From positions 8,113-72,112 of the forward strand of contig JANXRV010000123.1 in NCBI GenBank assembly GCA_025356665.1: a stretch of 64,000 nucleotides of DNA, in the 5' to 3' direction. A program made the position numbers and the translations under genes. The DNA is from Pseudomonadota bacterium. GTDB lineage: Bacteria > Pseudomonadota > Gammaproteobacteria > Burkholderiales > SG8-39. This document shows positions 29,522 to 63,555 of the stretch, one piece after another; the stretch's first letter is position 1, and every line of letters begins with the position of its first letter. Below the pieces are notes generated by a model that saw nothing but the letters and a program-made list of their open reading frames with translations, had not been told where the DNA came from and did no database searches.

Positions 29522-29587
29522 AGGTTCCAATGCAAGTTTCAGCTTGACCACCGGCGCCGGTAAGCGGCGTGCGATACGCTTGTGTGC

Positions 29588-33435: not shown

Positions 33436-33526
33436 TCCCTCTGAGCTTCGATCGCTGACTTTTGATTGTTTATATTTGCGCCTCTTCGGGTTTCCCGGAG
33501 GGGCGCAAGGTTTGTTCGGGCCTCGC

Positions 33527-35370: not shown

Positions 35371-35377
35371 CCCGGCA

Positions 35378-36145: not shown

Positions 36146-36157
36146 TACGGAGGGCGC

Positions 36158-37000: not shown

Positions 37001-37245
37001 GCGCAGTGCGGGCATTCGGGCGCCGATAATGCGCGGCCACGCTGCGCGGCGGCAGCCGCCTGGCGAGGGCCTGTATGACCTGGCGAGCCGCCCGCTCTGG
37101 CGTATGCTGCGAATCAGGCTGTGGCTGACGCAGGCCTACAGTGGCTGCGGCTTGACCCGGTGGATGCCCACAGCTTCGGCGCCGGAAGTAAATGTAGGCG
37201 ATGTTGCTCAAGTCAGCCTTTCAATCGATGCTGGCACAGCCTTGC

Positions 37246-37273
37246 CTTGATTTAACAATCAAGATTGATCAAT
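37246..37273. promoter_or_regulatory. AT-rich inverted repeats upstream of the Bug-SDR-TauD operon
   Basis: CTTGATT-taac-AATCAAG followed directly by the palindrome ATTGATCAAT. Confidence 0.5.
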
Positions 37274-37385
37274 TAAGGGATATCCAATACATTGCGCATC
37301 GTACAAACAGAGATTTGCCGTCGCGAGCGGGCGCAGGTGCACACTTGCAGCCAAGATCGGGCGACCTGTAACAGGAGGATTCACC

Positions 37386-38381: not shown

Positions 38382-38392
38382 GGGGCGGGCGC

Positions 38393-39172: not shown

Positions 39173-39227
39173 GAAATGCATGGAGCAAAAATCGGCAATT
39201 CGAAGGGTAGGGAAACAAGGAGGCGGT

Positions 39228-46069: not shown

Positions 46070-46316
46070 TGAGCCTCCTATGGCTTTTTGATGTTGCGGA
46101 ATTCCGGCAGCGCGTGAAATGCGTGCGACGGGTGCGCAATTATGCGCCATGCCGGCCGCAAGGGCATGGTTGAGCATTGAATCAACATGCACGCAGGGCG
46201 ATCGCGCCATGGGCTTGAGAAAATCACCGGCCGCCGTAGCCTAATTCTCCTAAAATGGCATCCTTGAAATTCTCAGACCGGCGACGCCCGCCAAGGTGTC
46301 GCGCGCGCCAGTTCCC

Positions 46317-47966: not shown

Positions 47967-47986
47967 AACAGCCGAAAGCCACGATC

Positions 47987-48868
47987 ATGTCCCGACTGCA
48001 GACGTCCACTCCGGCGCGCCTTCACCACCTGCATCTCACCAGCGAGGATCCCAAGGCCCTTGCGCGTTTTTATGTCGATCTGATGGACCTTACCCCGACT
48101 GAAATTGACGGCGGCGCGATCTTGCTGCGGGGTGGTCTGCGCAGCCTTCAGGTGAGCCGCGGGCCGTCGCGCGCGCTGGCCTGGAGTGCCTATGCCCTTG
48201 CCGACGATGCCGCCCTGGCCCGGCTGCGCGCGCGACTCGCGGCGGATGGTTTCGGTGCAAGGGACATGCACAGCATGCAGCCTATTAAGGCCCCGCTGTT
48301 TGGCGATGGTGCGTTTGTCGTCGCCGACCCGCAGGGCAGGCGCGTGGTGTTCGGTGTTCCTGCCGACGATAACGCCAGCCCTGTAGTTCGCGATGGGCGT
48401 CGCGATGCGCGCCCTGCGCGCATGCAGCACGTGGTGTTCCAGACCACAGAGCTTGACGCCATGGTGGCGTTTTACTCGGGCAGGCTTGGCTTCACGGTTT
48501 CGGACCGCGTGGTGGAGGAGGATGGCAGCCTCGCCGTGTGTTTCATGCGCTCGGATGACGAGCACCATAGCGTGGCTTTTTTCCGCGGCGTGCGCAACGA
48601 GCTCGACCACCATTGCTATGAGACCGACGGCTGGATGGACATACGCGACTGGGGTGATCGATTCGCCAGGGTTCGCATTCCGATATTTTTCGGCCCCGGC
48701 CGCCACGGCCCCGGTGACAACCTGTTCTTCATGGTCAACGATCCGGATGGCAACAAGGTGGAGTTGTCCGCCGAGATCGAGATCGTCAAGGCCGACAAAC
48801 CGGCCGGAGTCTGGCCGCAAAGCGAATACACACTCAATAGCTGGGGCCGTGCCTGGATGCGCAGCTAA
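47987..48868 (+). CDS. VOC-family extradiol ring-cleavage dioxygenase-like protein
   Basis: MQHVVF, EHHSVAF, LDHHCYE and GPGRHGPGDNLFFMVNDPDGNKVE motifs. Confidence 0.87.
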   Translation: MSRLQTSTPARLHHLHLTSEDPKALARFYVDLMDLTPTEIDGGAILLRGGLRSLQVSRGPSRALAWSAYALADDAALARLRARLAADGFGARDMHSMQPIKAPLFGDGAFVVADPQGRRVVFGVPADDNASPVVRDGRRDARPARMQHVVFQTTELDAMVAFYSGRLGFTVSDRVVEEDGSLAVCFMRSDDEHHSVAFFRGVRNELDHHCYETDGWMDIRDWGDRFARVRIPIFFGPGRHGPGDNLFFMVNDPDGNKVELSAEIEIVKADKPAGVWPQSEYTLNSWGRAWMRS

Positions 48869-49588: not shown

Positions 49589-50380
49589 ATGAAGCTGCTG
49601 CGCAAGTGGCTCGGTGGCGAATATGTCGAGGTCAGCGAATCGGCGGGCGTGCGCTCCTTGCATCTGGGCGGCGATGCCATACAAAGCGCGATGCGCTTAT
49701 CGGCACCGGACAAACTCGAGCTGCATTACACGCAGGCGATGATGGCCTGCCTGCTGTTCCGGCCCGATCCGGGCGCTATCCTGATGATCGGCCTTGGCGG
49801 CGGATCCTTGGTCACATACGTGCGCGGCACCCTGCCCAAGGCGCGCATGACCGTGATCGAGATCAGCGCCAAGGTGGTGGCTGCTGCGCGCAGCTTTTTT
49901 TCGCTGCCCGGTGACGATGAAACGCTGCGTGTGGTGGTGGACGATGGCGCGAAATACGTCGCCAGGGAGGCGGCCGAGGTCGATGTGCTGCTGCTCGATG
50001 GCTTTGACGACGGCGCGCAGGCCAAGCCGCTTTGCACCGCGTCTTTTTACCAGTACGCCTACGAGGCCCTGTCTGCGGACGGGGTGCTGGTGGTGAACTT
50101 CATGGCCGAAGACCCGAAGCTTGAGCTTTACCGTTCGCGCATCGCCCAGACCTTTAACGGCCGCCTGGTGTGCATGCATGCGGCCGACCGGGTCAATGTC
50201 ATTCTGTTCGCCTTTCGTGGCGCCGACACCCGCGTCGCCTGGGAGACGCTGCGCAAGCGCGCGAAATCGCTTAAGCGCAACCATCCCAACCTGCCGCTGG
50301 AAAAATTCATCACCCTGCTGCGCGAGGGCAACGCGCATACGGCGAACTACCTCAGCATCAGGGGAGAACGGGCGGCGTAA
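49589..50380 (+). CDS. Spermidine synthase-like SAM-dependent transferase
   Basis: VRSLHLG..IQSAM, YTQAMM, IGLGGGSL and DVLLLDGFD motifs. Confidence 0.88.
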   Translation: MKLLRKWLGGEYVEVSESAGVRSLHLGGDAIQSAMRLSAPDKLELHYTQAMMACLLFRPDPGAILMIGLGGGSLVTYVRGTLPKARMTVIEISAKVVAAARSFFSLPGDDETLRVVVDDGAKYVAREAAEVDVLLLDGFDDGAQAKPLCTASFYQYAYEALSADGVLVVNFMAEDPKLELYRSRIAQTFNGRLVCMHAADRVNVILFAFRGADTRVAWETLRKRAKSLKRNHPNLPLEKFITLLREGNAHTANYLSIRGERAA

Positions 50381-50486
50381 GGGTAGGGTCGATTGGCTCC
50401 CCTTCCTGCGCACGTATGGAACTATGTGCGTGGTTCCAGATCCAGGATTGCGGCTACTGCTGGAGGGTGTCCCCGCGGCAAACCCG

Positions 50487-50798
50487 CTACGGTGCAGCGT
50501 CTTCAATGATGAGGCTAACCTCGTCATCGTTCACCGTCACAGGAAAGGTCTGCACGGGTTTTCCCGCATTTCCCTTGCCCTTCCACACATCGACTCGAAA
50601 ACTGTGCAGGGGGCACTTCACTGTGGTCCCATCGAACTCGCCCTCGCCTAGGGAAGCACCGCGGTGCGGACACCGGTTGTTGATCGCCGCACACCGCTCG
50701 CCCACCCGGAATACCGCGACGCGCAGTCGTTCGCTAACCTCGACGATCTTGCAGCCGCCGTCCGGGATTTCGTTCCTGCTGATCTTGATGATTGCCAC
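50487..50798 (-). CDS. Rieske (2Fe-2S) ferredoxin
   Basis: NRCPHRGASLGEG and CPLHS motifs; 103 aa. Confidence 0.92.
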   Translation of the reverse strand: MAIIKISRNEIPDGGCKIVEVSERLRVAVFRVGERCAAINNRCPHRGASLGEGEFDGTTVKCPLHSFRVDVWKGKGNAGKPVQTFPVTVNDDEVSLIIEDAAP

Positions 50799-50923
50799 GG
50801 TCTAGCCTTTCCACGTTTTTTTCCACCGTCGCCAGTGTTGGAAATTTTCATTATTTCGAGAGACCGTATTCTGTCGTTAGTCGTCAATAAATTCCACTCT
50901 TATGATGAGCTCCTTGCAAAAGT

Positions 50924-50949
50924 CTAAATTCGCGAACTAAATTCGTGAA
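50924..50949. promoter_or_regulatory. Tandem 13-bp operator-like sites (CTAAATTCGYGAA twice)
   Basis: Direct repeat with internal TTCGYGAA palindrome in the Rieske/Bug divergent region; related sites at 52938, 53847 and 63867. Confidence 0.55.
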
Positions 50950-51117
50950 TATTGCGGCGTGCCGTTTAGTCCACGTGGGACATTTTCCAGGTGATTATGA
51001 TCAGTGTGTTAGTGTTCTGTGTGTTTTATGCGCTGGCTGGTTTAAATAAATACTTTGCGCACTCCACTGCGCACTGTTTGACATACGTCTGAGCACAATT
51101 TTCTATTAGGGACAGAT

Positions 51118-52101
51118 ATGCGTTTGAATTTTTTAACCTTCGTTTTTCAGATTTTGAGTGTTTTGAGTGTCGTGCTCCCCTTTTCGAATGCGTATGCCCA
51201 GAACATTTGGCCGAATAAGCCCGTCAAGCTGATTTTGCAAAGTCCTCCCGGTGGAACTAGCGACTTGATTGCGCGGCTCCTACAAGCACCGCTCCAGGAA
51301 GCGCTCGGGCAGCCCGTGATAATCGAAAGTCGCCCCGGCAGCTTTGGCATTCCGGCAGGGATCGTGGTCGCGAATGGAGGATCCGACGGGCATACCTTCG
51401 GGCTCTTTGGCAGCAGTTTGGCGAGCAACGTAGTGATGCAGAAGAGTCTGCCTTACGACTCATTGCGTGACTTTACGCCGGTTAGCTTAGTAGCTCGAAC
51501 TCCGAACCTGATTTCGGTAAATGCATCCAGTCCGATAACCTCTATCCAAGATCTGGTGGCGGCGGCAAAGGCAAAGCCTGGGAGCCTAAGTTTCGGCACG
51601 CCGGGACCCGGGCTGACGCAGCACTTTGCTGGTGAATGGTTGAATTTTCTGGCCGGTATAAACATGGTGCACGTGCCCTACAAGGGGGCTGGGCCGGCAA
51701 TGAACGACACGATGGGCGGGCAAATTCCGGTTGTGATAACCGTAGCAGGGTCCGCTACTGCGCTGGTGCAATCGGGCCGTTTGCGTGCGCTGGCCGTAAC
51801 AGGCCTCGAGCGGTTACCACTGTTCCCGAACGTGCCTACAGTTGCGGAGCAGGGTTATCCCGGCTTTTCCATAGTTGAGTGGTTCGGTATCGTGGGGGCT
51901 CCGGGTATCCCAGTTGAAGTCACAAGAAGGCTTAATGTCGAGGTCAATCGAGCGCTCAGAATCCCCGCAATTGCGGAGCGGCTTCGAAACCTCGGGTTTC
52001 AGCCGGGTTCACAGAGTCCCGGGGAATTCCAAGCATTTATAGAGGAAGAGGTGAAGATTATCCGCACTATCGTTCGCAGCGCGAAAATCAGCGTCGACTA
52101 A
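51118..52101 (+). CDS. Bug/TctC substrate-binding protein
   Basis: WPNKPVKLILQSPPGGTSD, HVPYKG and LRALAVT motifs. Confidence 0.93.
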   Translation: MRLNFLTFVFQILSVLSVVLPFSNAYAQNIWPNKPVKLILQSPPGGTSDLIARLLQAPLQEALGQPVIIESRPGSFGIPAGIVVANGGSDGHTFGLFGSSLASNVVMQKSLPYDSLRDFTPVSLVARTPNLISVNASSPITSIQDLVAAAKAKPGSLSFGTPGPGLTQHFAGEWLNFLAGINMVHVPYKGAGPAMNDTMGGQIPVVITVAGSATALVQSGRLRALAVTGLERLPLFPNVPTVAEQGYPGFSIVEWFGIVGAPGIPVEVTRRLNVEVNRALRIPAIAERLRNLGFQPGSQSPGEFQAFIEEEVKIIRTIVRSAKISVD

Positions 52102-52171
52102 TGGCATGCGCCTGTGCGATGTAGTCCGCGTGAGCCTGAATCTGCCGCAGCTGTTTCCATCCTGACGTTCT

Positions 52172-52924
52172 TCAGGCCTCTTTCGCCGCACGAGAGGTTT
52201 CTGCGTAGGAGAGCTTTTGTAGTACTTGGTCGCGCTGCTTTCGCACGTGACCTTGTATGGATACCGACAGTGCCTTCAAGTCCGCCCTGAGGTACGCCTG
52301 CCCGATTTCGTGATGCTCCTTCAACATCATGAGAGAAGGATCTTCTTCGCCCAGGTACAGAGCCGAGAGCCAGCGCCGATATTTTTCAAAGTCTTTTAAG
52401 ACCGAGATTAATTGATCATTATCGCAGCGATTGTGTAGTAGATCAGGGAATGCAATTGCCAGAGATGCGTACTCACGAGCGCGCTTTGCGTTAAGGGCAT
52501 CCTTCATCTGAGCAAGAACCTTGACGATTTTTTCATGATCTCCGGGCTTGGCGTTAAGGCTGGAGATAAACGTCCGATTGATTTCGAGGATTATCCAGGT
52601 CTCGTAGGTATCGAATACAAATTTCTTCGTTGGTGTTGCCACCCTCCGATCTCGGGGGCCCAGGCGCTCGGCAAGGCCGTCCCTCTCTAGAGCCGCCAGT
52701 ACATCGCGAACAGGCGATCGGCTGGTCGCGTATTCCTTTGCAATGAACTCCTCTGAAAGCCTACTTCCCGGAGGAAGTTCTCCAGAGACAATTCGTAACT
52801 CAAGATTCTCGTGAAGTTGTTCGGTGAGGCTTCTGCGTTGCAGCTTCAGTAGACGGGAGCCAATGGGCTTTTCCGCCACTTCAGCTATGGGTTTTATTAG
52901 TGCTACTTTTTTTGATTTTTCCAT
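52172..52924 (-). CDS. GntR/FadR-family transcriptional regulator
   Basis: IVSGELPPGSRLSE...SRSPVRDVL..LERDGL winged HTH, followed by an FCD-like C-terminus (EH..I). Confidence 0.9.
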   Translation of the reverse strand: MEKSKKVALIKPIAEVAEKPIGSRLLKLQRRSLTEQLHENLELRIVSGELPPGSRLSEEFIAKEYATSRSPVRDVLAALERDGLAERLGPRDRRVATPTKKFVFDTYETWIILEINRTFISSLNAKPGDHEKIVKVLAQMKDALNAKRAREYASLAIAFPDLLHNRCDNDQLISVLKDFEKYRRWLSALYLGEEDPSLMMLKEHHEIGQAYLRADLKALSVSIQGHVRKQRDQVLQKLSYAETSRAAKEA

Positions 52925-52968
52925 GTGCTGGTGTTTCCACGCGAATTTTTAAGCGGTGTTACCCGTGC

Positions 52969-53835
52969 TCAGGCAATCCGCGCGGGCAGGGCTAACCACT
53001 GCCGAGCACGTATCACCCATTCTGAATGGGCATCCCGAGCGGCCTCATGTGTGCCGAAGTGAGTAAGCCCCTTTAATTCTAACAGTTCCACCCTGCATCC
53101 TGAGTTGGTGAGTGCCTCTGCCATATTCCGAGCTTGTGGGAGGAGTTCGGGCAAATCTTGTGTCCCAAAGGCGATAAGAAATGGGGTGTGATTTCCGCTG
53201 GTATGCAGCACAGGACTCGCAGCTTCCGTGTCTGCCAGATCATCCAGGAAATTCGAAACCTTCATTCTGCGGACAGGATCGTCGCTGCGTAGGTCAAAGG
53301 GCGCGCTGATGGGCATGCACGCCGTCGGGATATTTTTGGGAATGCCCCTGCTTGTCGAGAGATCTGACCTTACTGTGGCCAGAGCGGCTAGGTGACCTCC
53401 TGATGAGTGCCCCCCGAGAAAAATTCGATCCGGGTCCCCGCCGTGCTTGGCTATGTTTTCAGAGACCCATTTTAGTCCGTCGAGAACATCTTCCAAGGGC
53501 TTCGGAAATTTCGCTAACGGTGCCAGCCGATGCGATATCGACACAAAAATCGCCGGCAGCGAACAAAAAGCAGGTGCCATAAATCCCATCCATTCTTTGT
53601 ACCCGTTCGCCCACGCTCCGCCGTGTACAAAGCACAGCACCGGCACGTCACGGGCAGAGGAGTCCGCAGGCAGATACACATCGAGTTTTTGCCAGTAATC
53701 ATTGCCAAAGGGAACATCGAGCAGGGTTCGGGACTGTTCTTGTGCCAGTCGTGACCACTCGAGAATGCGCGCAGAGTAGGCAGGACCATCCGGATGGATC
53801 AGGGGGGGGAGTTCTGGCAAATCTTCAAAGGACAT
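52969..53835 (-). CDS. Alpha/beta hydrolase, arylformamidase/kynurenine formamidase-like
   Basis: QKLDVY, VHGGAW, RLAP, GHSSGGHL and THF motifs. Confidence 0.85.
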   Translation of the reverse strand: MSFEDLPELPPLIHPDGPAYSARILEWSRLAQEQSRTLLDVPFGNDYWQKLDVYLPADSSARDVPVLCFVHGGAWANGYKEWMGFMAPAFCSLPAIFVSISHRLAPLAKFPKPLEDVLDGLKWVSENIAKHGGDPDRIFLGGHSSGGHLAALATVRSDLSTSRGIPKNIPTACMPISAPFDLRSDDPVRRMKVSNFLDDLADTEAASPVLHTSGNHTPFLIAFGTQDLPELLPQARNMAEALTNSGCRVELLELKGLTHFGTHEAARDAHSEWVIRARQWLALPARIA

Positions 53836-53863
53836 TGGTATTCCCTTTTGCGAAATTAGTGTG

Positions 53864-53884
53864 TATCGTGCTTTGTACACGATA
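53864..53884. promoter_or_regulatory. Inverted repeat TATCGTG-N7-CACGATA
   Basis: Perfect 7-bp arms in the hydrolase/diiron-oxidase divergent region. Confidence 0.5.
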
Positions 53885-53975
53885 ATGTAATTCTGATTAC
53901 TGGCTAGTGGATTGGGTACCGCAGACGCCGCCAGCCTCCCACAATTCTCATAGAAATTTTTTAATAGGGGTAACC

Positions 53976-54689
53976 ATGTCTCTTACTGCTTCAGCGGTGC
54001 TCGAGGAAATCAAGAATATCCACAAACGCAAGCCGATGTATGGTCATCCGCTTTGGACCGGCATGGTGGATGGTACCTTCAGTCTCGAGCAGGTGCGTTA
54101 TTTCTGTCTGCAGCACGGTGTCATCCCTTTGCACAATCACAACTACCATGGTCGCCTGTACGTTGTTTGTCCGGATGCTGCATGGCGCGAGAAAATTGCG
54201 GAAGTCGCATACGAAGAGGCGACCGGTCGGATTCATGCCGACGGCGTGTCGCACCATAAGCTGTATTTGAACTATGGCAAGGCGTTGGGCCTGTCACGAG
54301 AAGAGATGCTCAACGCCGATTACTGCGGCGGCGGATTGGCATTCAAATCATTCTTCCAAGAATTATGCGGTAAAAATTTTCTCGAGGGTGTTTCTACGCA
54401 CATGTTGGCGGGCGAGGCGCCGATCCCCGGTTTGTACATACGCGTTGCGAAGAAGTTGCAGGAGAAATTTCAACTCTCGGACGAAGGCATCGCGTACTGG
54501 ACGGTGCATGACAGTGCGGACGAAGATCACTCCGATGTCGGCCGAGAACTCCTGGATCAGTTTGCACCCACCGACAAAGACAAGGAACTTGTCCTCAAGA
54601 CCGTGCGTACTACCGTTGATGTCATGCATCTGATGTATGACGATTTTTATGCAAACATGATGCGTATTACCACGGGGAAAAGCAAATAG
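53976..54689 (+). CDS. TenA/PqqC/CADD-family heme-oxygenase-like diiron protein
   Basis: HPLW, YEEATG...SH..LY..YGKALG, GE and YWTVHDSADEDH (E/H/E/H-x3-D-x2-H ligand set). Confidence 0.85.
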   Translation: MSLTASAVLEEIKNIHKRKPMYGHPLWTGMVDGTFSLEQVRYFCLQHGVIPLHNHNYHGRLYVVCPDAAWREKIAEVAYEEATGRIHADGVSHHKLYLNYGKALGLSREEMLNADYCGGGLAFKSFFQELCGKNFLEGVSTHMLAGEAPIPGLYIRVAKKLQEKFQLSDEGIAYWTVHDSADEDHSDVGRELLDQFAPTDKDKELVLKTVRTTVDVMHLMYDDFYANMMRITTGKSK

Positions 54690-54722
54690 CTGCTGCCGAC
54701 CTCTTTACCAGGAAAGTCAAAA

Positions 54723-55127
54723 ATGACTCAACAAACCATTCTCGCGCCAGGGGTACCCGCGGGACCAGCGGGAAGTTTTTCCGCCTGCAAAAGGGTGGGC
54801 GATACGGTATACATTTCGGGGACGGTTGCTTGGGATCAGGATATGAAACCCCTGGGGGGCAACGATGCCTACCAGCAGTCAAGAATAATTTTTGATTACT
54901 TGAAGCGCATCATGGAGGCAGCCGGAGGAGAGATCGACGACATTGTGCGGATCACCGTATTCACTACCGACATGCGTCATCAACCTGCGTTCTGGAAGGC
55001 GCGAAAGGAATTTTTCTCTGGTGATTTTCCCTGCTCTACGCTGGTGTGTGTGTCGGCACTATTCCTGCCCGAGCTTTTAATTGAAGTGGAAGCGACCGGC
55101 GTGATCGGTTCGGCGAAGCGCAATTGA
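54723..55127 (+). CDS. RidA/YjgF family protein lacking the catalytic Arg
   Basis: VYISG, DIVRITVF, FPCSTLV and LLIEVEA motifs. Confidence 0.9.
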   Translation: MTQQTILAPGVPAGPAGSFSACKRVGDTVYISGTVAWDQDMKPLGGNDAYQQSRIIFDYLKRIMEAAGGEIDDIVRITVFTTDMRHQPAFWKARKEFFSGDFPCSTLVCVSALFLPELLIEVEATGVIGSAKRN

Positions 55128-55176
55128 GGTACCTGGCCCAGGCGGCGAGTTACGTAGTGATTAGAAAAAAAAGCCA

Positions 55177-57537
55177 ATGAAATATATCGGCCGACCGCTC
55201 AAACGGCGTGAGGATGTTCGATTTCTCACAGGTGGCGGGAATTTCGTGGATGACGTCAAGCTACCCAACACGGCTTGGATTGGATTTCTGCGAAGCCCGC
55301 ACGCACACGCGCGCATTCTCTCAATCACATCAACGGCTGCGAAAGACATGCCTGGTGTGCTTAGAGTGCTGACGTTCGCCGACTGGAAAGAGGCGGGGCT
55401 GGGTGAGCTGACCTGCGTCCATCCGATGCCCTTTAGTGATGGGCGCCCCATGAATGAAGTCCTGCGTCCATGTTTCGCGTCCGATTGCGTGCGGCATGTC
55501 GGCGACGTGGTCGCTGCCGTTGTGGCCGAAGACCGCTATGCGGCCCTTGATGCGCTGGATGCCATCGAAGTGGACTATGAAATTTTGCCCGGGATTGCGA
55601 TTACGGCGCAGGCGCTCGATTCAGAGGCGCCGGTAATTCACGACAGCTTGCATTCCAACCTGGTTAACGATGTTGTGCGCGGGAACAGGGCGGCGACAGA
55701 TGCTGCATTTGCGACCGCGGCGCACGTCACGGAGCTGACCTTATCGAGCAACAGGGTTGCAGGCAATCCGATGGAACCGCGCGCCTACATTGCTGACTAC
55801 GATCGCGCTACAGCACGTAGCACACTGTGGGCAACCACGCAGGTTCCGCACATGCTCCGGCGCTGGATCTGCAAATACACCCTATTTATTCCAGAAAACA
55901 AGCTGCGTGTAATCGCCCCCGATGTTGGAGGCGGGTTCGGGGTCAAATGTCACTACGCCGTGGAGATTGCTTCCGTGGTGTGGGCATCCCGACTTCTGGG
56001 ACGCCCAGTCAAATGGACTTGCACGCGATCAGAGCTAATGATGTCCGACGCACAGGCGCGCGATCACTACACGCATGCGAAGATGGCATTCTCCAAGACC
56101 GGGCAGATCCTCGGCATGCAGGTTGATACGCTCGCGAATTTTGGAGCCTACTGCAGCAATTTTGGTCCGAGCATTCCCGGTAACTCGTATCCGCAGACAA
56201 TCACCGGTCTTTATATGACGCCCAACCTGGATCTGCGGGTGCGCGGCGTGTACACCAACACCGTACCTATTGACGCTTATCGCGGCTCGGGGCGACCCGA
56301 GGCGACCCTGGTGAACGAACGGTTACTCGAGAATGGGGCCCGTGAAATGGGCATTGATGTGGTGGAAATGCGCCGACGCAATCTGATCCCGCATGAACTC
56401 TTCCCGTACAAGACACCGGTTGGGCGGGTCTATGACTCCGCTAACCCGCCGCGGATGCTCGAAGAGTTGGTTGTGCTTTCTAGTTACGCGAAGTTGCGTG
56501 AACAACAACTACGTCGACAAAACGCCGGCGAACTAGTGGGAATTGGCCTTGCCGCATTCCTGGATAAATCAGGCACAGGCCCCAGCGCGACGCTTGCCTC
56601 TAAGGGCGGTATGCACGGCGGCTACGAAAGTGCGTTGGTTCGAGCCCACAGCGACGGGAAGGTGACCATATTCTCGGGAAGCCATTCGCACGGGCAGGGC
56701 CACGATACGGCGTTTTGCCAGGTGGCGGCCGACCGTCTGGGTCTGCCGCTTGAGGACATTTCCCTGGTGCAAGGTGATACCGATAGCGTTCCATTCGGCA
56801 ATGGCACTTGGGGTTCACGCTCTTTATCGGTGGGCGGCATTGCCATCTACAAAGCCTCCAACAAAGTTATAGACAAAGCCAAAAAGATTGCCGCCCACAT
56901 GTTCGAATGCGCGGTATCAGATCTTGACTATGCCAATGGACTATTCTCAGTGGCTGGGACGGATCGCGTTGTCACGTTTGCCGAAGTTGCCGACGCCGCT
57001 CACCACGGGGCGAATTGCCCGACCGAAGCAGATTTCGAACCCGGGTTGGAAGCCACAGTGTTTTACGATCCGCCCGATACCAATGATCCCTCTGCCATGC
57101 ATTTGGCCGTGGTCAGCATTGATCCCAAAACTTGGCGTGTGCAAGTCGAGTCTTATTACACGCTCGACGATTGTGGCCTGGTGGTTAACCCGCTCATTGT
57201 CGAGGGCCAAGTCCATGGCGGGCTGGCTCAGGGTATCGGTCAAGCGATGATGGAAAAAGTCTCCTACGATGCGGAGTCCGGTCAGTTGCTCACGGGTACT
57301 TTCATGGATTACGCGATGCCGCGTGCGAGTGACATGCCACCTTTGAAGCTTGGGTTTATCTGCACACCTGCGCCAGGCAATCCACTCGGGGTGAAGGGCG
57401 GAAGCGAGACAGGTACGATAGGTCCGCCTGCGTCTATCGGCAATGCCATTGTCGACGCACTTTGGCACCTTGGCGTCCGTCATGTCGATGCGCCGTACAC
57501 GCCGCATGCGGTATGGAAGGCGGTAAGCGGACAATGA
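55177..57537 (+). CDS. Xanthine dehydrogenase-family large subunit (form II CoxL-like)
   Basis: [39 protein letters not shown] and KGGSETG motifs. Confidence 0.94.
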
Positions 57538-58028
57538 GCGCTCGAGTTTTTAAATCTGTGGATATAACCGTCAACGGGGCGACGCTACGCGCAGAAGTTG
57601 AGACACGGCAGTCTTTAGCCGAATTCCTGCGTGCTCATGCCGGGCTGACAGGTACCCACATCGGTTGCGATACCAGCCAGTGCGGTGCATGCACGGTGCA
57701 CGTCGATGGCGTAGGCCTGAAGTCCTGTACTCTGCTGGCCGTACAAGCCAACGGCGCAGTCGTAACTACTATTGAAGGTCTTGCGGTGCGGGATGCCATG
57801 CATCCGATGCAGCAGGCGTTTCAGGAACATCATGCGCTTCAATGTGGATTTTGCACGCCCGGCATGGTAATGAGCGCACTCGATCTGGTGCGGAGAAATC
57901 CGCAGCCGACGGACGATGATATCCGGCACGCGCTTGAGGGAAACATCTGTCGCTGTACCGGCTATTACAATATTGTGAAAGCCATCTCTGCGGGCGCCAA
58001 AGCAATGCGCGAATTGCGCCCCGAATAG
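57534..58028 (+). CDS. CoxS-family (2Fe-2S) small subunit
   Basis: [18 protein letters not shown] and NICRCTGY motifs; ATGA overlap with the large subunit. Confidence 0.95.
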
Positions 58029-58049
58029 CACGAGAATTATTTCCATACC

Positions 58050-58844
58050 ATGCATTCATTTGAATATAGAGATCCCCGATCGCTCGTCGATGCCGAGGCC
58101 ACCCTGCGCGATGTGGGTGGCGCGAAATTGCTCGCTGGCGGTATGAGCCTTATCCCGGTTATGCGACTGCGGCTGGCCGAGGTTCCTGCTTTGGTTGACC
58201 TCAACCGGATCGAAGTCCTCGCCGGTATCACTGTTTCAAATGGTGTGGTCAGAATCGGATCGATGACGCGGCACGCCACAGTCGCGGCATCCGCCGAGGT
58301 GAAGGCGACGATTCCGGCCCTGTCCGTCCTTGCCGGAGGCATTGGCGATCCCCTTGTGCGCAACCGCGGAACTATCGGAGGGTCTCTTGCGAATAACGAT
58401 CCGTCGGCCTGCTATCCATCTGCCTTGTTGGGGCTCGATAGCACCGTGATTACCCAACGACGTCGTATTGCGGGTGACGCTTTCATTACCGGCATGTTCC
58501 AGACCGCGTTGGCTGCAGACGAAATTATCACGGCCGTGGAGTTCTCGGTGCCGCATTGTGCGGCGTATGTGAAATTTGCTAATTATTCTTCGCGATTCAG
58601 CATCGTCGGAGTCTTTCTATCGAGATATCTCTCGGGTGTACGAGTTGCCGTCACAGGTGCGGGGGCGCATGCGTTCCGTGCTACCGAACTAGAAAAAGCG
58701 CTGAGTCGTGATTTCTCAGCCACAGCGATCGAGGACATTACACTTGATCCAAAAAACCTGATGTCCGATCTTCACGCGAGCGCTGAATACCGGGCTCATC
58801 TCATCAAAGTGCTTACCCAACAGGCGGTGATGGCATGCATCTGA
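58050..58844 (+). CDS. CoxM-family FAD-binding subunit
   Basis: LAGGMSLIP and VRNRGTIGGSLANNDP motifs. Confidence 0.94.
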   Translation: MHSFEYRDPRSLVDAEATLRDVGGAKLLAGGMSLIPVMRLRLAEVPALVDLNRIEVLAGITVSNGVVRIGSMTRHATVAASAEVKATIPALSVLAGGIGDPLVRNRGTIGGSLANNDPSACYPSALLGLDSTVITQRRRIAGDAFITGMFQTALAADEIITAVEFSVPHCAAYVKFANYSSRFSIVGVFLSRYLSGVRVAVTGAGAHAFRATELEKALSRDFSATAIEDITLDPKNLMSDLHASAEYRAHLIKVLTQQAVMACI

Positions 58845-58887
58845 CACGAGTTTTTGGGACCACAATAATCTACGCGAAGGTCAGTCG

Positions 58888-59853
58888 ATGAACCTCTTTC
58901 TGACCTGCACATGGCTCGTACTCTCAACTCTTGCCGGAACCGCGTTTGGACAGACTCCGGCGTATCCCAGCAAACCGGTGCGAATCATCATCTCGTTTCC
59001 GGCCGGGGGGAGCACCGATTTTCTCGCGCGGATTCTCGCCGAACGGCTTCAATCGGGGATGCAGCAAACGGTAATCGTCGAAAACCGACCCGGTGGTAAT
59101 TCAGTTATTTCCGCGGAAATGGTTGCAAAGGCCTCGCCCGACGGATACACCTTGTTTATGGCAGTGGATTCGGTTATGTCCCTTAATCCATTGCTTTACT
59201 CCAAACTTTCCTACGACCCGGAGCGTGACTTCATACCAATCTCGCATGTGGCATCGCAGCCGTTTTTCATGGTTGCCGGCCCGCGCTCCCCGGTTCGAGA
59301 CTTGCCAAGTTTGATTGCCTACGCAAGGGAAAACCCGGGTAAGTTGACTTATGGAACATCGGCCATGCTTCAGCAACTGGCGGGTGAGAAATTGAAACTC
59401 GATAGCAAGGTAGATATGTTGCATGTGCCCTTCAGGGGTTCTCCCCCTATGCTGCAAGCTCTTTTGAACGGCGAAATAGACTTTGCTATCACGGCGACGA
59501 CACCGTATGCCACCTACGTGAAAGAGGGGCGATTGTTCGGAATCGCAACATCGGGTGGTCAGCGCGAGATGGTCCTGCCGACAACACCAGTCGTGAGAGA
59601 GGCCGGTTTTCCCGATCTGGAGTTTGGCAATTGGAACGGTCTTTACGCTCCGGCAGGAACGCCCACCTTTATTCTTGAGAAACTCAACGCTGAAGTCCGA
59701 AAGGCCATGAGCGATCCGGCTGTTTCTGCAAGGTTGATTCCTGCAGGTATTTATCCGAGTACCGGCACACCTGAGCAACTCAGAACCCTGAGAAAGTCTG
59801 ATATCGAACGCTGGGGGCCCGTGATTAAGGCCGCCAGAATAAAGCTGGATTGA
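58888..59853 (+). CDS. Bug/TctC substrate-binding protein
   Basis: YPSKPVRIIISFPAGGSTD, VENRPGG and PDGYTL motifs. Confidence 0.94.
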   Translation: MNLFLTCTWLVLSTLAGTAFGQTPAYPSKPVRIIISFPAGGSTDFLARILAERLQSGMQQTVIVENRPGGNSVISAEMVAKASPDGYTLFMAVDSVMSLNPLLYSKLSYDPERDFIPISHVASQPFFMVAGPRSPVRDLPSLIAYARENPGKLTYGTSAMLQQLAGEKLKLDSKVDMLHVPFRGSPPMLQALLNGEIDFAITATTPYATYVKEGRLFGIATSGGQREMVLPTTPVVREAGFPDLEFGNWNGLYAPAGTPTFILEKLNAEVRKAMSDPAVSARLIPAGIYPSTGTPEQLRTLRKSDIERWGPVIKAARIKLD

Positions 59854-59922
59854 GTTTGCAGGCGGTGGAAATGCCACGCGATTGCCTAGCGATAGGCACT
59901 TGCTAACTGAAAGGACTTTGCC

Positions 59923-60729
59923 ATGGCTTTACTCAAGCATGTCGCAATTGTTGTCTCTGATCTGGAAAAAGCAGCTTCGTTTTACGAGGAAGTCTTCGCC
60001 TTAGAGCGCGTTGGTCGCGATGATCTCGAATTTGGGTCGGGTATTTACCTTTCAGATGGTGTATTCAACCTGGCGTTGCTCCGCTACAAAGGGGCGAGTG
60101 GGTCTGGATTGTCAAACGCCGAAACATTTATCGGGACACACCATTTCGGTTTTGTCGTTGAAAACCTAGAACGAGCGGAAGAGAGGATAAAAGCTGCCGG
60201 TGGAACGTTCTTTTTTCAGCTTGGCGAGGGCGAAGACAAGATCAACTTCGAACGAAAGTTCAAGGATCCGGACGGGATCATTTTTGATATTTCACGGCAT
60301 GGTTGGGCTACGGCGGCAACTCCTGCGACTAAATCCAAACTTCGCCATGTGGCCATCGTCGTTAAGGATCTCGAGAAGGCTGCCCAGTTCTATGAGAATG
60401 TCTTCGAACTAAAACGGGTTGGCCGGGATGACCTTGAGTTTGCCTCTGGCATTTATCTGTCAGACGGAACCAGCAATCTTGCACTGCTTCGCTATAACGG
60501 AACGAAAGGTTCGGGTCTGAAGGACGCGAACAGTTTTGTTGGGGCTCACCATTTCGGTTTTATGGTCGATGATCTTGTCGCAACGGAAAAGCGCATTAAG
60601 GAAGCCGGTGGCACCTTCTTTTTTCAGCTCGGGGACGGAGAGGAAAAAGAGAACTTCGAACGCAAGTTCAAGGATCCTGACGGTATTATTTTTGACCTAT
60701 CAAAACATGGCTGGGCGGGAACGCGGTAG
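59923..60729 (+). CDS. VOC/glyoxalase protein made of two tandem near-identical domains
   Basis: Both halves contain L.HVAIVV.DLEKAA.FYE.VF, IYLSDG..NLALL, HHFGF.V and KFKDPDGIIFD.S.HGW. Confidence 0.92.
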   Translation: MALLKHVAIVVSDLEKAASFYEEVFALERVGRDDLEFGSGIYLSDGVFNLALLRYKGASGSGLSNAETFIGTHHFGFVVENLERAEERIKAAGGTFFFQLGEGEDKINFERKFKDPDGIIFDISRHGWATAATPATKSKLRHVAIVVKDLEKAAQFYENVFELKRVGRDDLEFASGIYLSDGTSNLALLRYNGTKGSGLKDANSFVGAHHFGFMVDDLVATEKRIKEAGGTFFFQLGDGEEKENFERKFKDPDGIIFDLSKHGWAGTR

Positions 60730-61009
60730 CTATACGCTACGTCTTCTATTTTTGTTTCGATCCGCCCTCGTCGGCGCATTGTGTGTTCTCTTCGTTAATG
60801 TTGACGCGATTTGCTGTTGGGTAAAGCGCATGGTGCGGGGAATGGCGGTGGCAATGGAAATTTTCTTCCTCTCGCGGGAGCGAGTTGTTTCCTTGGAGCT
60901 GGCAGGGGAGGTGGTACAAGTTTTATAGATGGAAGAGTCCATTGGGTGCCTGGCGGGCTAATACACTCCCAACTTTGGCATGTAATATTTTTTTCAAGGT
61001 AATCAATTA

Positions 61010-61318
61010 ATGAGCTTTTACGCCCACCACGTTTTTTTTTGCTGCAACCAGCGACCCGATGGGCAAGCCTGTTGCGAAGACTACGGTGCGACCGAGCTGC
61101 GTGCTTATGCCAAAGATAAGGTCAAGGCGCTCAATCTATCAAGTCAGAGCAAGGTCCGCATTAACCAAGCTGGCTGTCTCGACCGCTGTGAGTTGGGGCC
61201 GGTCATGGTCATTTATCCGCAAGAAACCTGGTACACCTATGTAGACAAATCGGATGTCGACGAAATTATTGAAGAGCACCTCAAAAACGGCCGTATCGTC
61301 GATCGTCTTAAGATTTAG
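61010..61318 (+). CDS. Thioredoxin-like (2Fe-2S) ferredoxin
   Basis: HHVFFCCNQR..CC and RINQAGCLDRCELGP..VIYP..WY motifs. Confidence 0.93.
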   Translation: MSFYAHHVFFCCNQRPDGQACCEDYGATELRAYAKDKVKALNLSSQSKVRINQAGCLDRCELGPVMVIYPQETWYTYVDKSDVDEIIEEHLKNGRIVDRLKI

Positions 61319-61324
61319 AGTCCC

Positions 61325-61384
61325 GTGACGCTCTTTGACATTACGGTGGATCCGCCGGCGTGGTGGGCGGAGCAACGGCGGCGG
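61325..61384 (+). pseudogene. Probable C-terminal remnant of a recombinase-cassette protein
   Basis: VTLFDITVDPPAWWAEQRRR recalls the TLFDLAVDPP.LWEEQR tail of small proteins found next to serine recombinases (from memory). Confidence 0.4.
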
Positions 61385-61451
61385 ATGAAGGAGCTGAAGG
61401 TTTTTATTCCTGTGGCCAGACCAGAAAGACAACCCGCATTGTTTCTTGGGA

Positions 61452-61829
61452 CTACTTATCCGGCGATGCCGTTAGCTTATCAATCAATTCTGAGTATCCG
61501 AACGGCTTGGGCAAGATGTCGTTAAAACCAGCTTCGAGAAAGGTTTGCCGGTGTATCTCATGTGCATGCGCGGTACAGGCAATGATGTGAGCATGGTTAT
61601 TCGTTGCGCTAGATCGAAGAACTTTACAAGTGTCCATACCGTTGATACCCGGCATACTGATGTCCAAAAGTATCACGTCAATGATATTTTTTTGGGCCAA
61701 TTGGAGACAATCAAACCCATTCGTTGCTTGAAACACCTTGGAATAACCAGCCTTCCGTAACATCCTGATTACGATCTGAAGTAACGCGGGATAATCATCG
61801 ACGATCATCACAGCCTGATTCTTGGCCAT
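61452..61829 (-). CDS. Stand-alone receiver-domain response regulator
   Basis: IVDD, LLDISMP, CTAH and LPKP motifs; alternative start at 61850. Confidence 0.9.
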   Translation of the reverse strand: MAKNQAVMIVDDYPALLQIVIRMLRKAGYSKVFQATNGFDCLQLAQKNIIDVILLDISMPGINGMDTCKVLRSSATNNHAHIIACTAHAHEIHRQTFLEAGFNDILPKPFGYSELIDKLTASPDK

Positions 61830-61836
61830 GGGATTT

Positions 61837-63555
61837 TCAACAGTCTTCATTGCCGACCTCAACGAATGGCAAAGTGACGTTGAATTTACTGCCAATCCCA
61901 ACAGAGGACTCAAGTCCAATCTGCCCCCCGAAAGATTCGACCAACTGAGCCGAGAGGTACAAACCAAGCCCGGTGCCTGATAAGGGTCGTGAACCAAACT
62001 CTTCCAATTGGCTAAATTGCTTGAATAATTTCGGAATATCTTCCGGACTTATTCCCGCGCCAGTATCCTCAATCACAATTTTCACGAACTTTCCGTCCAA
62101 TTTGACCTCGAATGCGACACCACCTCGATCGGTAAATTTGATTGCGTTATTGACCAGGTTTTGGAGCACCTGAATCAATGCGGTTCTGCTTGCTGCGACA
62201 AAAGGCAGATCCATATCAGGATGCTTGAGGCTGAGCGCCAAGCCCTTCTTGGATGCTTCAGCTTGGTTTATCGCGATGACCGTTTTAACGACATCCACTA
62301 CATTTACCTTTTCTTTTTTTGCTAAAGCTGAAGATGAACCAACAGAACTGAGCATCAGCAGGTTATCGACGATGTTCTTCAGATGATCGCCTGCCGAAAA
62401 AATGGACTCCGCGGTCTTCCGCGTTTCTTCGTCATCTGTAAAAGTTTTAATATAGTCCGCCCCCGCTTTAATTCCAGCCAATGGCGTCCTCAGTTCATGC
62501 GACATATTGCGTATAAACACTTCTTTGACACCAAGGGCCAAGGTGAGATGTTTACTCTGCAACTGCAGACTATCTTCAAAGGCTATAGATTTGCGAGATG
62601 AAAACTCGATCACAAAGAAAAGAATGCATAGCATGACGGACATTAAGATGGCCGCCAGATATCTGGATCTATCAGCAGCCAGGTTATCCGAGAACATTTC
62701 GTCGTTCGAGGCGGAAATGACCACCATCAGGGGCAATCCGGGAACGCGCTGATAGGCGTAATATTCCGAAAGCTGGTTTTCATCCGAAACCTCAAGCAGT
62801 CCGGAATCCTTAGTCGGTTGTTTTGCGATTTCCTGAAACCATCTGGTTGAACGAACATCCCTATCCACTTTCAACGCAGCGCCTGAATATTCCGTCCTTG
62901 AGTACCCATCTTCGCCGACAAGGTACATAGCCCTTCCGGGTGAAACCATATCCTTATACAACTCCGCAAAATATTGAGGTGCGAACGAAACCACAGCGAC
63001 TCCAATAAAGCCCTTCCCAGGCTTATCGATTCGGCGAGCAACTTGAATAGACAACTTTCCCGAAGACCTGCCAAGCACTGTGCGTCCTATAAACAATGGT
63101 TCGCCTGATCCGTTCTTATGGTGAAGGAAATGGGGTCTATCCCTAAGATCGATTTTGACAAACGGCGTGGGAACATTCCCGGCTATGGCAAATCCCTCTG
63201 AATTTATGATTCCAATCTGGGGGTACAACCGGGTATCTTCGAGAGAACGAATCTGCCGTCCCGACAGATTTATGGCGTCGCCCTTATCCAAGTATTCCAA
63301 CGTCACAAATTTTGCCAAGATATCGGCGCCAAAAAAACTTCTTTCAGAATGTAATGCAGCGACTTTCGCCAAGCGTTCAATGCGCTGGCTTGACTGAGCC
63401 AGCACGCGCGACCGATCCTGTACTGACAAGCTTAGGGTTGTTATCCAAATTGACGAAAAAACAATCAAGATTGAAATTAGAACTGGAGGCCGCGCTGTTA
63501 ACATGCGGGCTTTTTTCGCTCGGCGGAATCGATGCCGGCGAGAATAGGTCGGCAT
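61837..63555 (-). CDS. Sensor histidine kinase with a periplasmic Cache domain
   Basis: Two TM segments around DLRDRPHF..H..LFIG; MSHELRTPL, NLVNNAIKFT, DTGAGI and GTGLGL motifs. Confidence 0.93.
   Translation of the reverse strand: MPTYSRRHRFRRAKKARMLTARPPVLISILIVFSSIWITTLSLSVQDRSRVLAQSSQRIERLAKVAALHSERSFFGADILAKFVTLEYLDKGDAINLSGRQIRSLEDTRLYPQIGIINSEGFAIAGNVPTPFVKIDLRDRPHFLHHKNGSGEPLFIGRTVLGRSSGKLSIQVARRIDKPGKGFIGVAVVSFAPQYFAELYKDMVSPGRAMYLVGEDGYSRTEYSGAALKVDRDVRSTRWFQEIAKQPTKDSGLLEVSDENQLSEYYAYQRVPGLPLMVVISASNDEMFSDNLAADRSRYLAAILMSVMLCILFFVIEFSSRKSIAFEDSLQLQSKHLTLALGVKEVFIRNMSHELRTPLAGIKAGADYIKTFTDDEETRKTAESIFSAGDHLKNIVDNLLMLSSVGSSSALAKKEKVNVVDVVKTVIAINQAEASKKGLALSLKHPDMDLPFVAASRTALIQVLQNLVNNAIKFTDRGGVAFEVKLDGKFVKIVIEDTGAGISPEDIPKLFKQFSQLEEFGSRPLSGTGLGLYLSAQLVESFGGQIGLESSVGIGSKFNVTLPFVEVGNEDC

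Follow-up and report, generated by a model that had tools for sequence, protein, structure and literature searches.

A sporadic gene block combining a heme-oxygenase-like diiron protein with a molybdenum hydroxylase is a candidate route for organic acid degradation

The 64,000-nucleotide stretch analyzed here (the window; positions 8,113 to 72,112 of contig JANXRV010000123.1, from a Burkholderiales metagenome-assembled genome) carries at positions 50483 to 61319 a block of 12 protein-coding genes, among them one for a heme-oxygenase-like diiron oxidase/oxygenase (HDO). This block probably encodes an undescribed degradation route for an imported organic acid. Genes were called from a listing of open reading frames (ORFs) together with Pfam and NCBIfam scans, which recovered at the expected places every gene named in an initial annotation of positions 50487 to 60729. 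The HDO gene (53976 to 54689, plus strand; 237 amino acids; PF14518, 7e-17) opens a run of seven co-directional genes separated by gaps of at most 69 nucleotides. It is followed by a Rid-family gene whose product lacks the RidA/RutC arginine and reads FPCST instead (54723 to 55127; PF01042, 2e-22). Next come the three subunits of a molybdenum (Mo) hydroxylase: a CoxL-type large subunit with the active-site loop AYRGSGR (55177 to 57537; PF01315, PF02738, and PF20256), a [2Fe-2S] small subunit, CoxS (57462 to 58028, with a likely ATG start at 57534; PF01799 and PF00111), and a CoxM-type flavin adenine dinucleotide (FAD) subunit (58050 to 58844; PF00941 and PF03450). The run closes with the second of two Bug/TctC solute-binding proteins (58888 to 59853; PF03401, 7e-64; nearest solved chain, Bug27, 4e-57) and a two-repeat protein of the VOC (glyoxalase/dioxygenase) superfamily (59923 to 60729; identified by Pfam). 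All of these genes lie on the plus strand.

On the same strand, beyond the VOC gene, lies a gene for a thioredoxin-like [2Fe-2S] ferredoxin of 102 amino acids (61010 to 61318; PF01257; NF041612, 7e-20, below cut-off), and no notable small ORF was found between the two. Divergent from the HDO gene, on the minus strand, are an alpha/beta hydrolase of the Abhydrolase_3/BD-FAE type with HGGAW and GHSSG motifs (52969 to 53880; identified by Pfam) and a GntR/FCD-family regulator (52172 to 52924; PF00392 and PF07729). The left end of the block is formed by the first Bug/TctC periplasmic solute-binding protein (51118 to 52101, plus strand; PF03401, 3e-62) and a Rieske-type [2Fe-2S] ferredoxin of 103 amino acids (50487 to 50798, minus strand; PF00355, 2e-12; HcaC/AndAb-like, below cut-off), which is a proposed electron donor. 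All proteins of the block and of the related loci score below the cut-off of every NCBIfam equivalog. In keeping with the initial annotation, Pfam detected no pqq, thiamine, or folate gene and no Ring_hydroxyl_A domain, the mark of a ring-hydroxylating oxygenase partner, in the window ORFs scanned; between 1 and 46 kb these were the 40 ORFs that passed a length and third-codon-position GC (GC3) filter.

The whole window was compared by blastn with L001, a 38-kb contig from a genome of the same genus. A single collinear match was obtained at 50483 to 61319 (10,846 columns, 93.5% identity), and the flanks had no similarity to L001 on either side. Because the match ends at these two positions, the transferable unit is taken to be 50483 to 61319. 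The block thus spans about 10.8 kb, with the Rieske stop codon at its left border and the end of the thioredoxin-like ferredoxin gene at its right border. The initial annotation had correctly treated its genes as one unit but ended that unit at 60729, short of the second ferredoxin. The GC content is 53.7% in the block versus 61.9% in the 10 kb to its left, which bears out the earlier description of an AT-richer island. In L001, the block is bordered on one side by another CoxLMS set, a deacetylase, and a Bug gene and on the other by an ABC transporter and an ornithine-cyclodeaminase gene; no integrase or transposase was found in the L001 flanks available (6.5 and 3.4 kb). Metatranscriptome contigs from other lakes have loose ends at 50474 and 61319. 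A metagenome contig (L101:1-1470) has its left flank in common with the window up to 50572, including the last 86 bases of the Rieske gene, and consists beyond that point of unrelated DNA with no Pfam match. Another island at the same site, or the scar left there by a deletion, may account for it.

The source is a metagenome-assembled genome of 165 contigs (90% complete, 7% contamination), and the source contig ends about 300 bases past the window. HDO matches at E values of ≤1e-10 were found in 14 of the 201 genomes of the source's family. A close orthologue is present in only two of the four genomes of the same genus, relatives of 47 to 51% identity are present in two genomes of another genus, and the remaining family matches are at 22 to 28%. 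The block is a sporadic island that has moved laterally. Metagenomes from lakes, freshwater, and sediment, in at least six coded studies, contain nearly identical DNA.

The sequences nearest to the HDO among solved structures are the p-aminobenzoate synthases NePabS and CtCADD (E values, 4e-7 to 8e-6). An AlphaFold2 model built from an alignment of 33 relatives is all-helical, with a predicted local distance difference test (pLDDT) score of 90.6. Its best Foldseek match is CtCADD (TM scores, 0.82/0.90; root mean square deviation [rmsd], 2.0 Å; 21% identity), followed by PqqC, FlcD, UndA, and HrmI and then by TenA proteins. The Foldseek probability was 1.00 for CtCADD, PqqC, FlcD, UndA, and HrmI, which places the HDO in the seven-helix heme-oxygenase-like fold. 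With numbering from the methionine at 53976, residues E81, H93, E147, H178, D182, and H185 align with E81, H88, E142, H174, D178, and H181 of CADD and form the E-H-E-H-(D/E)-H ligand motif. All six ligands are invariant in 33 HDO sequences, as are W27 and the motif around PLHNHNYHG; the complete CADD-type ligand set reported in the initial annotation is therefore real.

CADD and NePabS are the nearest solved relatives of the HDO by both sequence and fold and hold their three histidines and three carboxylates at identical positions. The HDO is nevertheless unlike them in several respects. In alignments with both CtCADD and NePabS, Tyr27, identified in the available text of PMC9522330 as the residue that CADD sacrifices to make p-aminobenzoate, is replaced by Trp27; Lys152 of CADD aligns with a valine; and the context of the HDO gene is catabolic, not folate related. 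The HDO scored 63.5 bits on the CADD model TIGR04305 (cut-off, 200), 22.5 bits on the PqqC model TIGR02111 (cut-off, 240), and 27.8 bits on the TenA model TIGR04306 (cut-off, 130). Because it has the fold and all six ligands yet fails these models, the HDO belongs, as judged from model and sequence, to the HDO superfamily, where it represents a separate subfamily.

Database labels would suggest otherwise. Relatives of the HDO are named "PQQ biosynthesis protein C" or "TenA family," the ESM Atlas clusters carry only TenA, PqqC, or "iron-containing redox enzyme" names, and the fold is indeed closest to CADD and PqqC. That the HDO is an ordinary PqqC, TenA thiaminase II, or CADD-type p-aminobenzoate synthase standing beside unrelated genes is nonetheless extremely improbable, given the scores on the three family models, the replacement of Tyr27 by an invariant tryptophan, and the presence of every metal ligand that the metal-free PqqC and TenA proteins lack. 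No PqqE was found in the source genome (best score, 56 bits; cut-off, 381), an absence that is unproven because the genome is 90% complete; pqqA, pqqB, and pqqD were looked for only through Pfam scans of the window. The hidden Markov model and structure searches agree with the initial annotation, which had set the diiron protein apart from true PqqC and TenA. A second heme-oxygenase-like gene is located elsewhere in the source genome (G000:C41:7409-8086) and scores 53 bits on the PqqC model (cut-off, 240). The HDO subfamily is a narrow one. Among 1.84 billion representatives searched with a profile, 1034 proteins matched at E values of ≤1e-3, 299 at 1e-10, and 30 at 1e-30. Close relatives (45 to 69% identity) come almost entirely from alphaproteobacterial metagenome genomes.

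A scan of one genome per species yielded 61 HDO loci, of which L001 carries the same block; the other 60 were counted. With proteins from the window and from annotated loci as queries, the 8 kb to either side of the HDO were searched for neighbors. Under these conditions, an arginine-less Rid was found in 20 of the 60 loci, a CoxL of 60 to 68% identity was found in 12, and both were found in 10. The trio is arranged in high-GC genomes as CoxMSL divergent from HDO-Rid-HDO2, often with an FAD ring hydroxylase gene after it. The order in marine and lake Rhodospirillaceae is hydrolase-GFA-HDO-(unknown, 380 amino acids)-Rid-CoxL-hydrolase-luciferase-like monooxygenase-hydrolase, where GFA stands for the glutathione-dependent formaldehyde-activating family. 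GFA genes adjoin the HDO in 14 of the 60 loci (for example, L021, L032, L041, and L019). All Rid- or CoxL-linked HDOs fall together with that of the window in one clade of 39 (support, 99; FastTree, 82 HDO rows).

In a quick maximum-likelihood tree, the window CoxL, the 12 HDO-linked CoxLs, and the CoxL of L001 form a clade of 14 of the 29 rows (SH-aLRT, 100), and the two other CoxLs of the window fall outside it. Five HDO-bearing genomes contain 26 to 42 CoxL-family matches each at E values of ≤1e-100, and the linked clade is represented by at most one copy per genome. Since so few of the many CoxLs belong to this clade, the adjacency is not a chance effect of CoxL abundance. The five CoxL-rich genomes (G201 to G205, the genomes of L009, L061, L019, L029, and L017) are alphaproteobacterial metagenome genomes of 2.7 to 4.6 Mb.

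HDO-linked Rids are only 30 to 38% identical to the window Rid, and all 20 have the same serine at the position of its Ser105, which aligns with the arginine of the P-A-R motif in RutC (3v4d), 3r0p, and 6l8p. In Rid/RidA proteins, this conserved arginine binds carboxylate. The window Rid scored 61.9 bits on TIGR00004 (cut-off, 106), and the arginine of RidA-type 2-iminoacid deaminases is not present. The CoxLSM architecture is complete, with a molybdenum-cofactor-binding large subunit, a double-[2Fe-2S] small subunit, and an FAD medium subunit. The active-site loop of form I CO dehydrogenase is AYxCSFR; with its AYRGSGR loop and a score of 627.5 bits on TIGR02416 (cut-off, 991), the window CoxL is not a form I aerobic CO dehydrogenase.

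More distant HDO paralogues (45 to 57% identity) lie in other settings, arranged as HDO-VOC(328 amino acids)-aldo/keto reductase-dienelactone hydrolase, as LigB dioxygenase-hydrolase-binding protein-HDO-ABC transporter, or as TRAP transporter-HDO-FAA hydrolase-bicupin dioxygenase. The transporters around them are of the TRAP, ABC, or TTT type. These settings are plainly catabolic. To our knowledge, heme-oxygenase-like diiron enzymes have so far been known only from biosynthesis. If the role of all characterized HDOs, biosynthetic or detoxifying, extended to the present one, the block would make or modify a small cofactor-like or signaling metabolite and would not serve growth. This is very unlikely in view of both the catabolic contexts of the paralogues and the contents of the block, which has no ligases, nonribosomal peptide or polyketide synthases, methyltransferases, or exporters and instead has two uptake-type binding proteins, a GntR/FCD regulator, a Mo-hydroxylase, and a hydrolase. 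HDO genes also occur in arrays of three to five paralogues within about 10 kb in L010, L011, L013, L023, L035, and L037; those of L011 lie at 1342, 4084, 6110, 9255, and 10001. The arrays in L013, L023, L035, and L037 are accompanied by a VOC gene of the 328-amino-acid type, and those in L013, L023, and L037 are accompanied by an aldo/keto reductase gene as well.

The remaining genes of the block were followed from the Rieske ferredoxin, whose ligands (C43-x-H45 and C62-x-x-H65) are invariant in 18 sequences and whose only domain is PF00355. In L060, a GntR gene (42% identity), a Rieske ferredoxin gene (57%), and a second HDO gene follow each other on one strand, with the Rieske gene directly upstream of the HDO gene. 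In a reverse test, metagenome contigs were scanned with the Rieske ferredoxin, giving 32 loci, 15 of which have relatives of at least 56% identity. A VOC2-like gene lies near the Rieske relative in 6 of these 15 loci (L076, L077, L078, L079, L086, and L087, of which L076 and L077 are near-duplicates). An HDO is found in 3 (L084 at 52%; L076 and L077 with a distant subfamily), a CoxL in 3 (L081, 82%; L079, 45%; L076, 28%), Abhydrolase_3 in 4, Bug in 4, and GntR in 1. All of these neighbors are missing from four short contigs. The order in L084 is hydrolase-Rieske-GntR-binding protein-HDO-...-VOC, which puts the Rieske gene two genes from the HDO gene. GntR relatives of 42% (L060) and 38% (L084) identity adjoin Rieske and HDO genes, and hydrolase relatives of 29 to 36% identity adjoin Rieske ferredoxin genes in L084 to L087. 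With relatives directly beside an HDO gene in L060 and close to one in L084, the Rieske ferredoxin is, on sequence evidence, part of the unit.

A separate line of evidence links the VOC gene to the HDO. In P0028, a protein of 400 amino acids, a VOC domain (60 to 62% identical to each of the window repeats) precedes an HDO (66%). Among the 15 members listed for its 90% cluster, 3 have 400 amino acids and the others are separate proteins of 134/145 and 238 amino acids. Because the cluster mixes fused and separate proteins, VOC-HDO adjacency is certain and VOC-HDO fusion in some strains is probable. The window VOC protein itself is a tandem duplicate of an approximately 130-amino-acid domain resembling glyoxalase I and methylmalonyl-CoA epimerase (MMCE). 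The hydrolase is of the hormone-sensitive-lipase type. Its best relatives in the PDB are carboxylesterases and no formamidase is among the 60 PDB relatives shown, which leaves the earlier "formamidase-like" label for this Abhydrolase_3/BD-FAE-type protein without support. A variant cluster at L086:1-5273 encodes a Rieske ferredoxin of 74% identity that is truncated at the contig end, together with a Rid, a VOC protein with one domain (74% identical to a window repeat), an Abhydrolase_3 hydrolase, and a Bug protein.

Taken together, we read the block as a catabolic module that follows the logic of the pic and nic clusters, with the HDO and the Rieske ferredoxin in the oxygenase slot, and we consider the chances of this reading to be about even. 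The reactions, the electron path, and the class of substrate are those we infer from the gene content. An organic acid would be taken up by means of the Bug (TTT) binding proteins and would relieve repression by the GntR/FCD regulator, the presumed controller of the module. CoxLSM would then carry out a water-dependent hydroxylation of the acid's skeleton. The HDO would add a second oxygen function by oxidation with O2, most likely through a hydroxylation to ready the ring for cleavage, and could be re-reduced by the Rieske ferredoxin and possibly also by the second [2Fe-2S] ferredoxin. The VOC protein may open or rearrange (isomerize) the activated ring, the alpha/beta hydrolase may hydrolyze an ester, amide, or C-C bond of the oxidized product, and the arginine-less Rid may hydrolyze an imine or enamine.

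The pic genes are the picolinic acid cluster of Alcaligenes faecalis JQ135, also found in Bordetella, and the nic genes are a related nicotinic acid cluster. Both resemble the block in having a three-subunit CoxLSM-type Mo dehydrogenase, a likeness at the level of enzyme type. They also have a second, O2-dependent hydroxylation step using a Rieske ferredoxin (proposed in the block), a ring-opening metalloenzyme (a candidate in the block) with an alpha/beta hydrolase, a transcription regulator, carboxylate uptake, and betaproteobacterial hosts rich in Bug proteins. The second oxygenase is PicB or a flavin monooxygenase (NicC) in these clusters, whereas the block has the HDO and neither a Ring_hydroxyl_A nor an FAD_binding_3 domain. 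In the other direction, the glyoxalase-like VOC protein as the ring-opening candidate, the Rid, and the second ferredoxin are particular to the block. In the pic pathway as described in the available text (bioRxiv 10.1101/530550), the CoxLSM-type picolinate dehydrogenase is succeeded by PicB, a Rieske oxygenase of four components, and then by a decarboxylase, a dioxygenase that cleaves the ring, a deformylase of the alpha/beta-hydrolase type, and an amidase. Oxygenase alpha and beta subunits, a reductase, a PicC-type decarboxylase, an amidase, and a maleate isomerase were not seen in the block, and Pfam and NCBIfam detected no amidohydrolase_2, amidase, or Asp/Glu-racemase-type domain among its 12 proteins. 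The block would work like pic without being a member of that group: it lacks the oxygenase, decarboxylase, amidase, and isomerase that define the group and has an HDO, a Rid, and a glyoxalase-like VOC protein in their place.

A number of observations weigh against this interpretation. The complete gene set was seen only in the window and in the close relative L001; conservation of the neighborhood, which the initial annotation had proposed to examine, holds for parts that recur together in unrelated lineages and fails for the full set. The counts of neighbors are lower bounds, and the absences among them are weak, because many loci are cut by contig ends, and the trees are limited to one quick tree and one FastTree. 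The orthologue of the linked CoxL is lacking in three of the five CoxL-rich, HDO-bearing genomes (best match, 43 to 44%), and in the other two a 67 to 68% orthologue lies about 145 to 160 kb from the HDO, adjoining a GFA-family gene; CoxL is dispensable for HDO-bearing genomes. Of the 60 genome loci, L060 alone has a Rieske ferredoxin at a distance of 8 kb or less from the HDO. L086 also encodes the alpha and beta subunits of a ring-hydroxylating oxygenase, L079 encodes an oxygenase alpha subunit, and a Rieske oxygenase could be the true type of partner of this ferredoxin. The block has no ferredoxin reductase. The window VOC protein is not a canonical extradiol dioxygenase by sequence, and its model (pLDDT, 93.1) resembles two-barrel VOC oxygenases only moderately, with TM scores of 0.68 to 0.74 for hydroxymandelate synthase/HPPD and 0.64 to 0.70 for catechol 2,3-dioxygenases at rmsd values of 4 to 6 Å throughout. 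Finally, CoxS and CoxM score best, and CoxL second best, on glyceraldehyde (aldehyde) dehydrogenase models, the best NCBIfam match of CoxS being glyceraldDH_gamma, below cut-off. In light of these aldehyde dehydrogenase scores, the N-heterocyclic substrate named in the initial annotation is a guess.

The same subunit scores would suit a route from an amine to an acid. In such a route, the HDO, acting in the manner of BesC or N-oxygenases, would convert a primary amine or an amino acid oxidatively into an imine, the Rid would hydrolyze the imine, and CoxLSM would be an aldehyde oxidoreductase that forms the acid, with the VOC protein and the hydrolase acting later or on side products. The HDO-Rid-CoxLSM order is collinear with this sequence of reactions, and a Rid without the carboxylate-binding arginine suits imines other than 2-imino acids. 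GFA genes stand beside the HDO in the 14 loci mentioned above and, in G201 and G202, adjoin the CoxLSM orthologue where it is far from the HDO (L112:11370-11618 and L113:11635-11883). Characterized HDOs act mainly on amino and fatty acids according to the available text of PMC13108848. We nevertheless judge this route unlikely: all of the NCBIfam scores are far under their cut-offs, many HDO-Rid loci have no CoxL, and the route explains neither the VOC-HDO fusion nor the recurrence of VOC, LigB, and cupin dioxygenases and ring-fission-type hydrolases near HDO paralogues.

Separability of the parts raises another alternative, a mosaic of two or three separately evolving modules (HDO-Rid, CoxLSM, and Rieske-VOC-hydrolase-GntR) that carry out related but separable steps or act on different substrates. 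HDO-Rid-HDO2 does occur with EamA, SDR, or TRAP genes instead, CoxLSM is found at the 145- to 160-kb distance given above, and L086 combines the Rieske-VOC-hydrolase set with a Rieske oxygenase. Against these stand the movement of the block as one piece with sharp borders, the tight spacing of its seven-gene run, the repeated re-association of the modules in distant lineages, and the VOC-HDO fusion or adjacency, which crosses a supposed module border. A mosaic is accordingly considered quite unlikely. If the block were such a loose mosaic, it would remain an ordinary catabolic neighborhood. No HDO or CoxL was found in the 7.2 kb of L086. Since the ferredoxin-VOC-hydrolase-Rid-Bug set occurs with either type of oxygenase, this pattern fits, without proving, the preferred reading, in which the HDO holds the oxygenase slot of a pic-like catabolic module.

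A more specific proposal can be made only tentatively, and we rate it as doubtful. The HDO clade and the Rieske ferredoxin would together constitute a multicomponent oxygenase for aromatic or N-heteroaromatic acids, the first catabolic role in the superfamily, and the two ferredoxins would pass electrons from the Mo-hydroxylase to the diiron center with no NAD(P)H reductase. Of the earlier suggestion that the Rieske ferredoxin is the donor to the HDO, its membership in the unit stood (L060 and L084), while its scarcity near HDO genes and the Rieske oxygenase partners in L086 and L079 count against the rest. A predicted complex of the HDO with the Rieske ferredoxin scored 0.01 against a mark of 0.32, a value that says nothing for or against binding.

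Known systems offer partial parallels for such an electron path. The available text of PMC13725569 reports that the HDO MboA, which acts in alkyne formation in mangotoxin, needs the reductase MboB and that the SznF and RohS clusters encode ferredoxin-like proteins, which are uncharacterized. MboA/MboB is the single reconstituted HDO-reductase pair that was found in the literature. These systems resemble the block in placing an HDO gene beside a gene for a dedicated iron-sulfur electron-transfer protein. MboB is a flavo-iron-sulfur protein like phthalate dioxygenase reductase, whereas the block has a small Rieske-type ferredoxin with no reductase, and the Mbo system is biosynthetic, not catabolic. 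In toluene-4-monooxygenase, an enzyme of aromatic catabolism, the Rieske ferredoxin T4moC delivers electrons to the carboxylate-bridged diiron hydroxylase T4moH, the same pairing of a Rieske-type ferredoxin with a diiron hydroxylase that is proposed for the block. The fold of T4moH is of the ferritin-like four-helix diiron type, and this hydroxylase works with an effector protein and a reductase; the HDO has the seven-helix heme-oxygenase-like fold. Toluene-4-monooxygenase is cited for its diiron and Rieske components as reference 52 in the available text of PMC13725569. HDOs studied so far need no protein effector, as stated in the accessible part of PMC13108848.

The Rut pyrimidine pathway, with RutC and RutD, likewise uses a Rid and alpha/beta hydrolases for the enamine or imine products of an oxidatively opened N-ring, and RutC is the second-best NCBIfam match of the window Rid. 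The two systems differ in that the window Rid scores 58.7 bits on RutC (cut-off, 169) and has a serine in place of the RutC arginine, and in that the block has no RutB, RutE, or RutF genes. A Rut-like reading of the marine loci was also tried and set aside; their luciferase-like monooxygenase gives no match to RutA, and their hydrolases match RutD weakly. The marine origin of the relatives also prompted a comparison with the homarine (hom) operon, which proved unrelated; it has an FAD-binding HomA, HomB, a peptidase, and an aldehyde dehydrogenase.

In the open full-text literature, from which subscription journals are largely missing, no paper describing such an HDO catabolic cluster was found, and no curated family model matching the gene set was found either, in line with the initial annotation's view of an undescribed combination. 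What would be new is an unprecedented oxygenase component in an otherwise known kind of catabolic cluster for aromatic or N-heterocyclic acids. A catabolic HDO with a natural protein reductant would widen both the chemistry and the biology of the superfamily, and such a ferredoxin would be a physiological electron donor of the kind replaced by chemical mediators in most in vitro work on HDOs. If the proposed electron path is correct, one molecule of substrate would itself supply the electrons for its second oxygenation, and no separate NAD(P)H reductase would be needed. The same HDO clade recurs in Rid/CoxL or hydrolase/monooxygenase clusters of freshwater and marine Alphaproteobacteria with dozens of CoxL paralogues, and naming the HDO substrate would annotate a recurrent step of carbon and nitrogen turnover in aquatic bacteria.

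Three lake RNA libraries contain contigs, 90 to 99% alike, that cover 23 to 25 of the 30 bins of 50000 to 62000, with the HDO covered in all three. Because DNA carry-over is possible in RNA libraries, these contigs are weak evidence of expression in relatives, and the stretches left uncovered (for example, 59624 to 60425 in X15 to X17) are not evidence of silence. Scans of the sequence for promoters (10 versus 7.4 ± 2.5) and terminators (17 versus 12 ± 3.9) did not rise above shuffled expectation. An inverted repeat, ATCGTG-N7-CACGAT, was noted by eye at 53865 to 53883 in the divergent region between the hydrolase and HDO genes.

Elsewhere in the window, positions 6777 to 15664 hold a second Mo-hydroxylase set (CoxL, 9018 to 11426; CoxM, 11578 to 12417; CoxS, 12425 to 12892) flanked by amidohydrolases at 6777 to 8054 (minus strand) and 12893 to 14440, a MarR gene at 8175 to 8819, and a Bug gene at 14687 to 15664. 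It looks like another catabolic locus for an N-heterocycle or amide. A third, solitary CoxL-type gene, which lies outside the HDO-linked clade, is located at 27161 to 29521 within the region from 25300 to 31865, where it adjoins an AMP-dependent ligase (25300 to 26841, minus strand) and a molybdopterin oxidoreductase (29646 to 31865). A plus-strand run at 32416 to 40076 encodes a TRAP transporter (DctPQM), two short-chain dehydrogenases, two TauD/TfdA-family dioxygenases, and a Bug protein. To the right of the block, a response regulator and a dCache histidine kinase are encoded at 61452 to 63555; since this segment is outside the stretch common to L001 and its GC content (47%) is below that of the block, it is a second stretch of foreign DNA, at the end of the contig. 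Immediately to the left of the island, in native DNA of high GC content, a gene for an MhpA-like FAD ring hydroxylase (NF004831, 678 bits, above cut-off) overlaps the start of one for an extradiol VOC dioxygenase, the two occupying 46296 to 48868.

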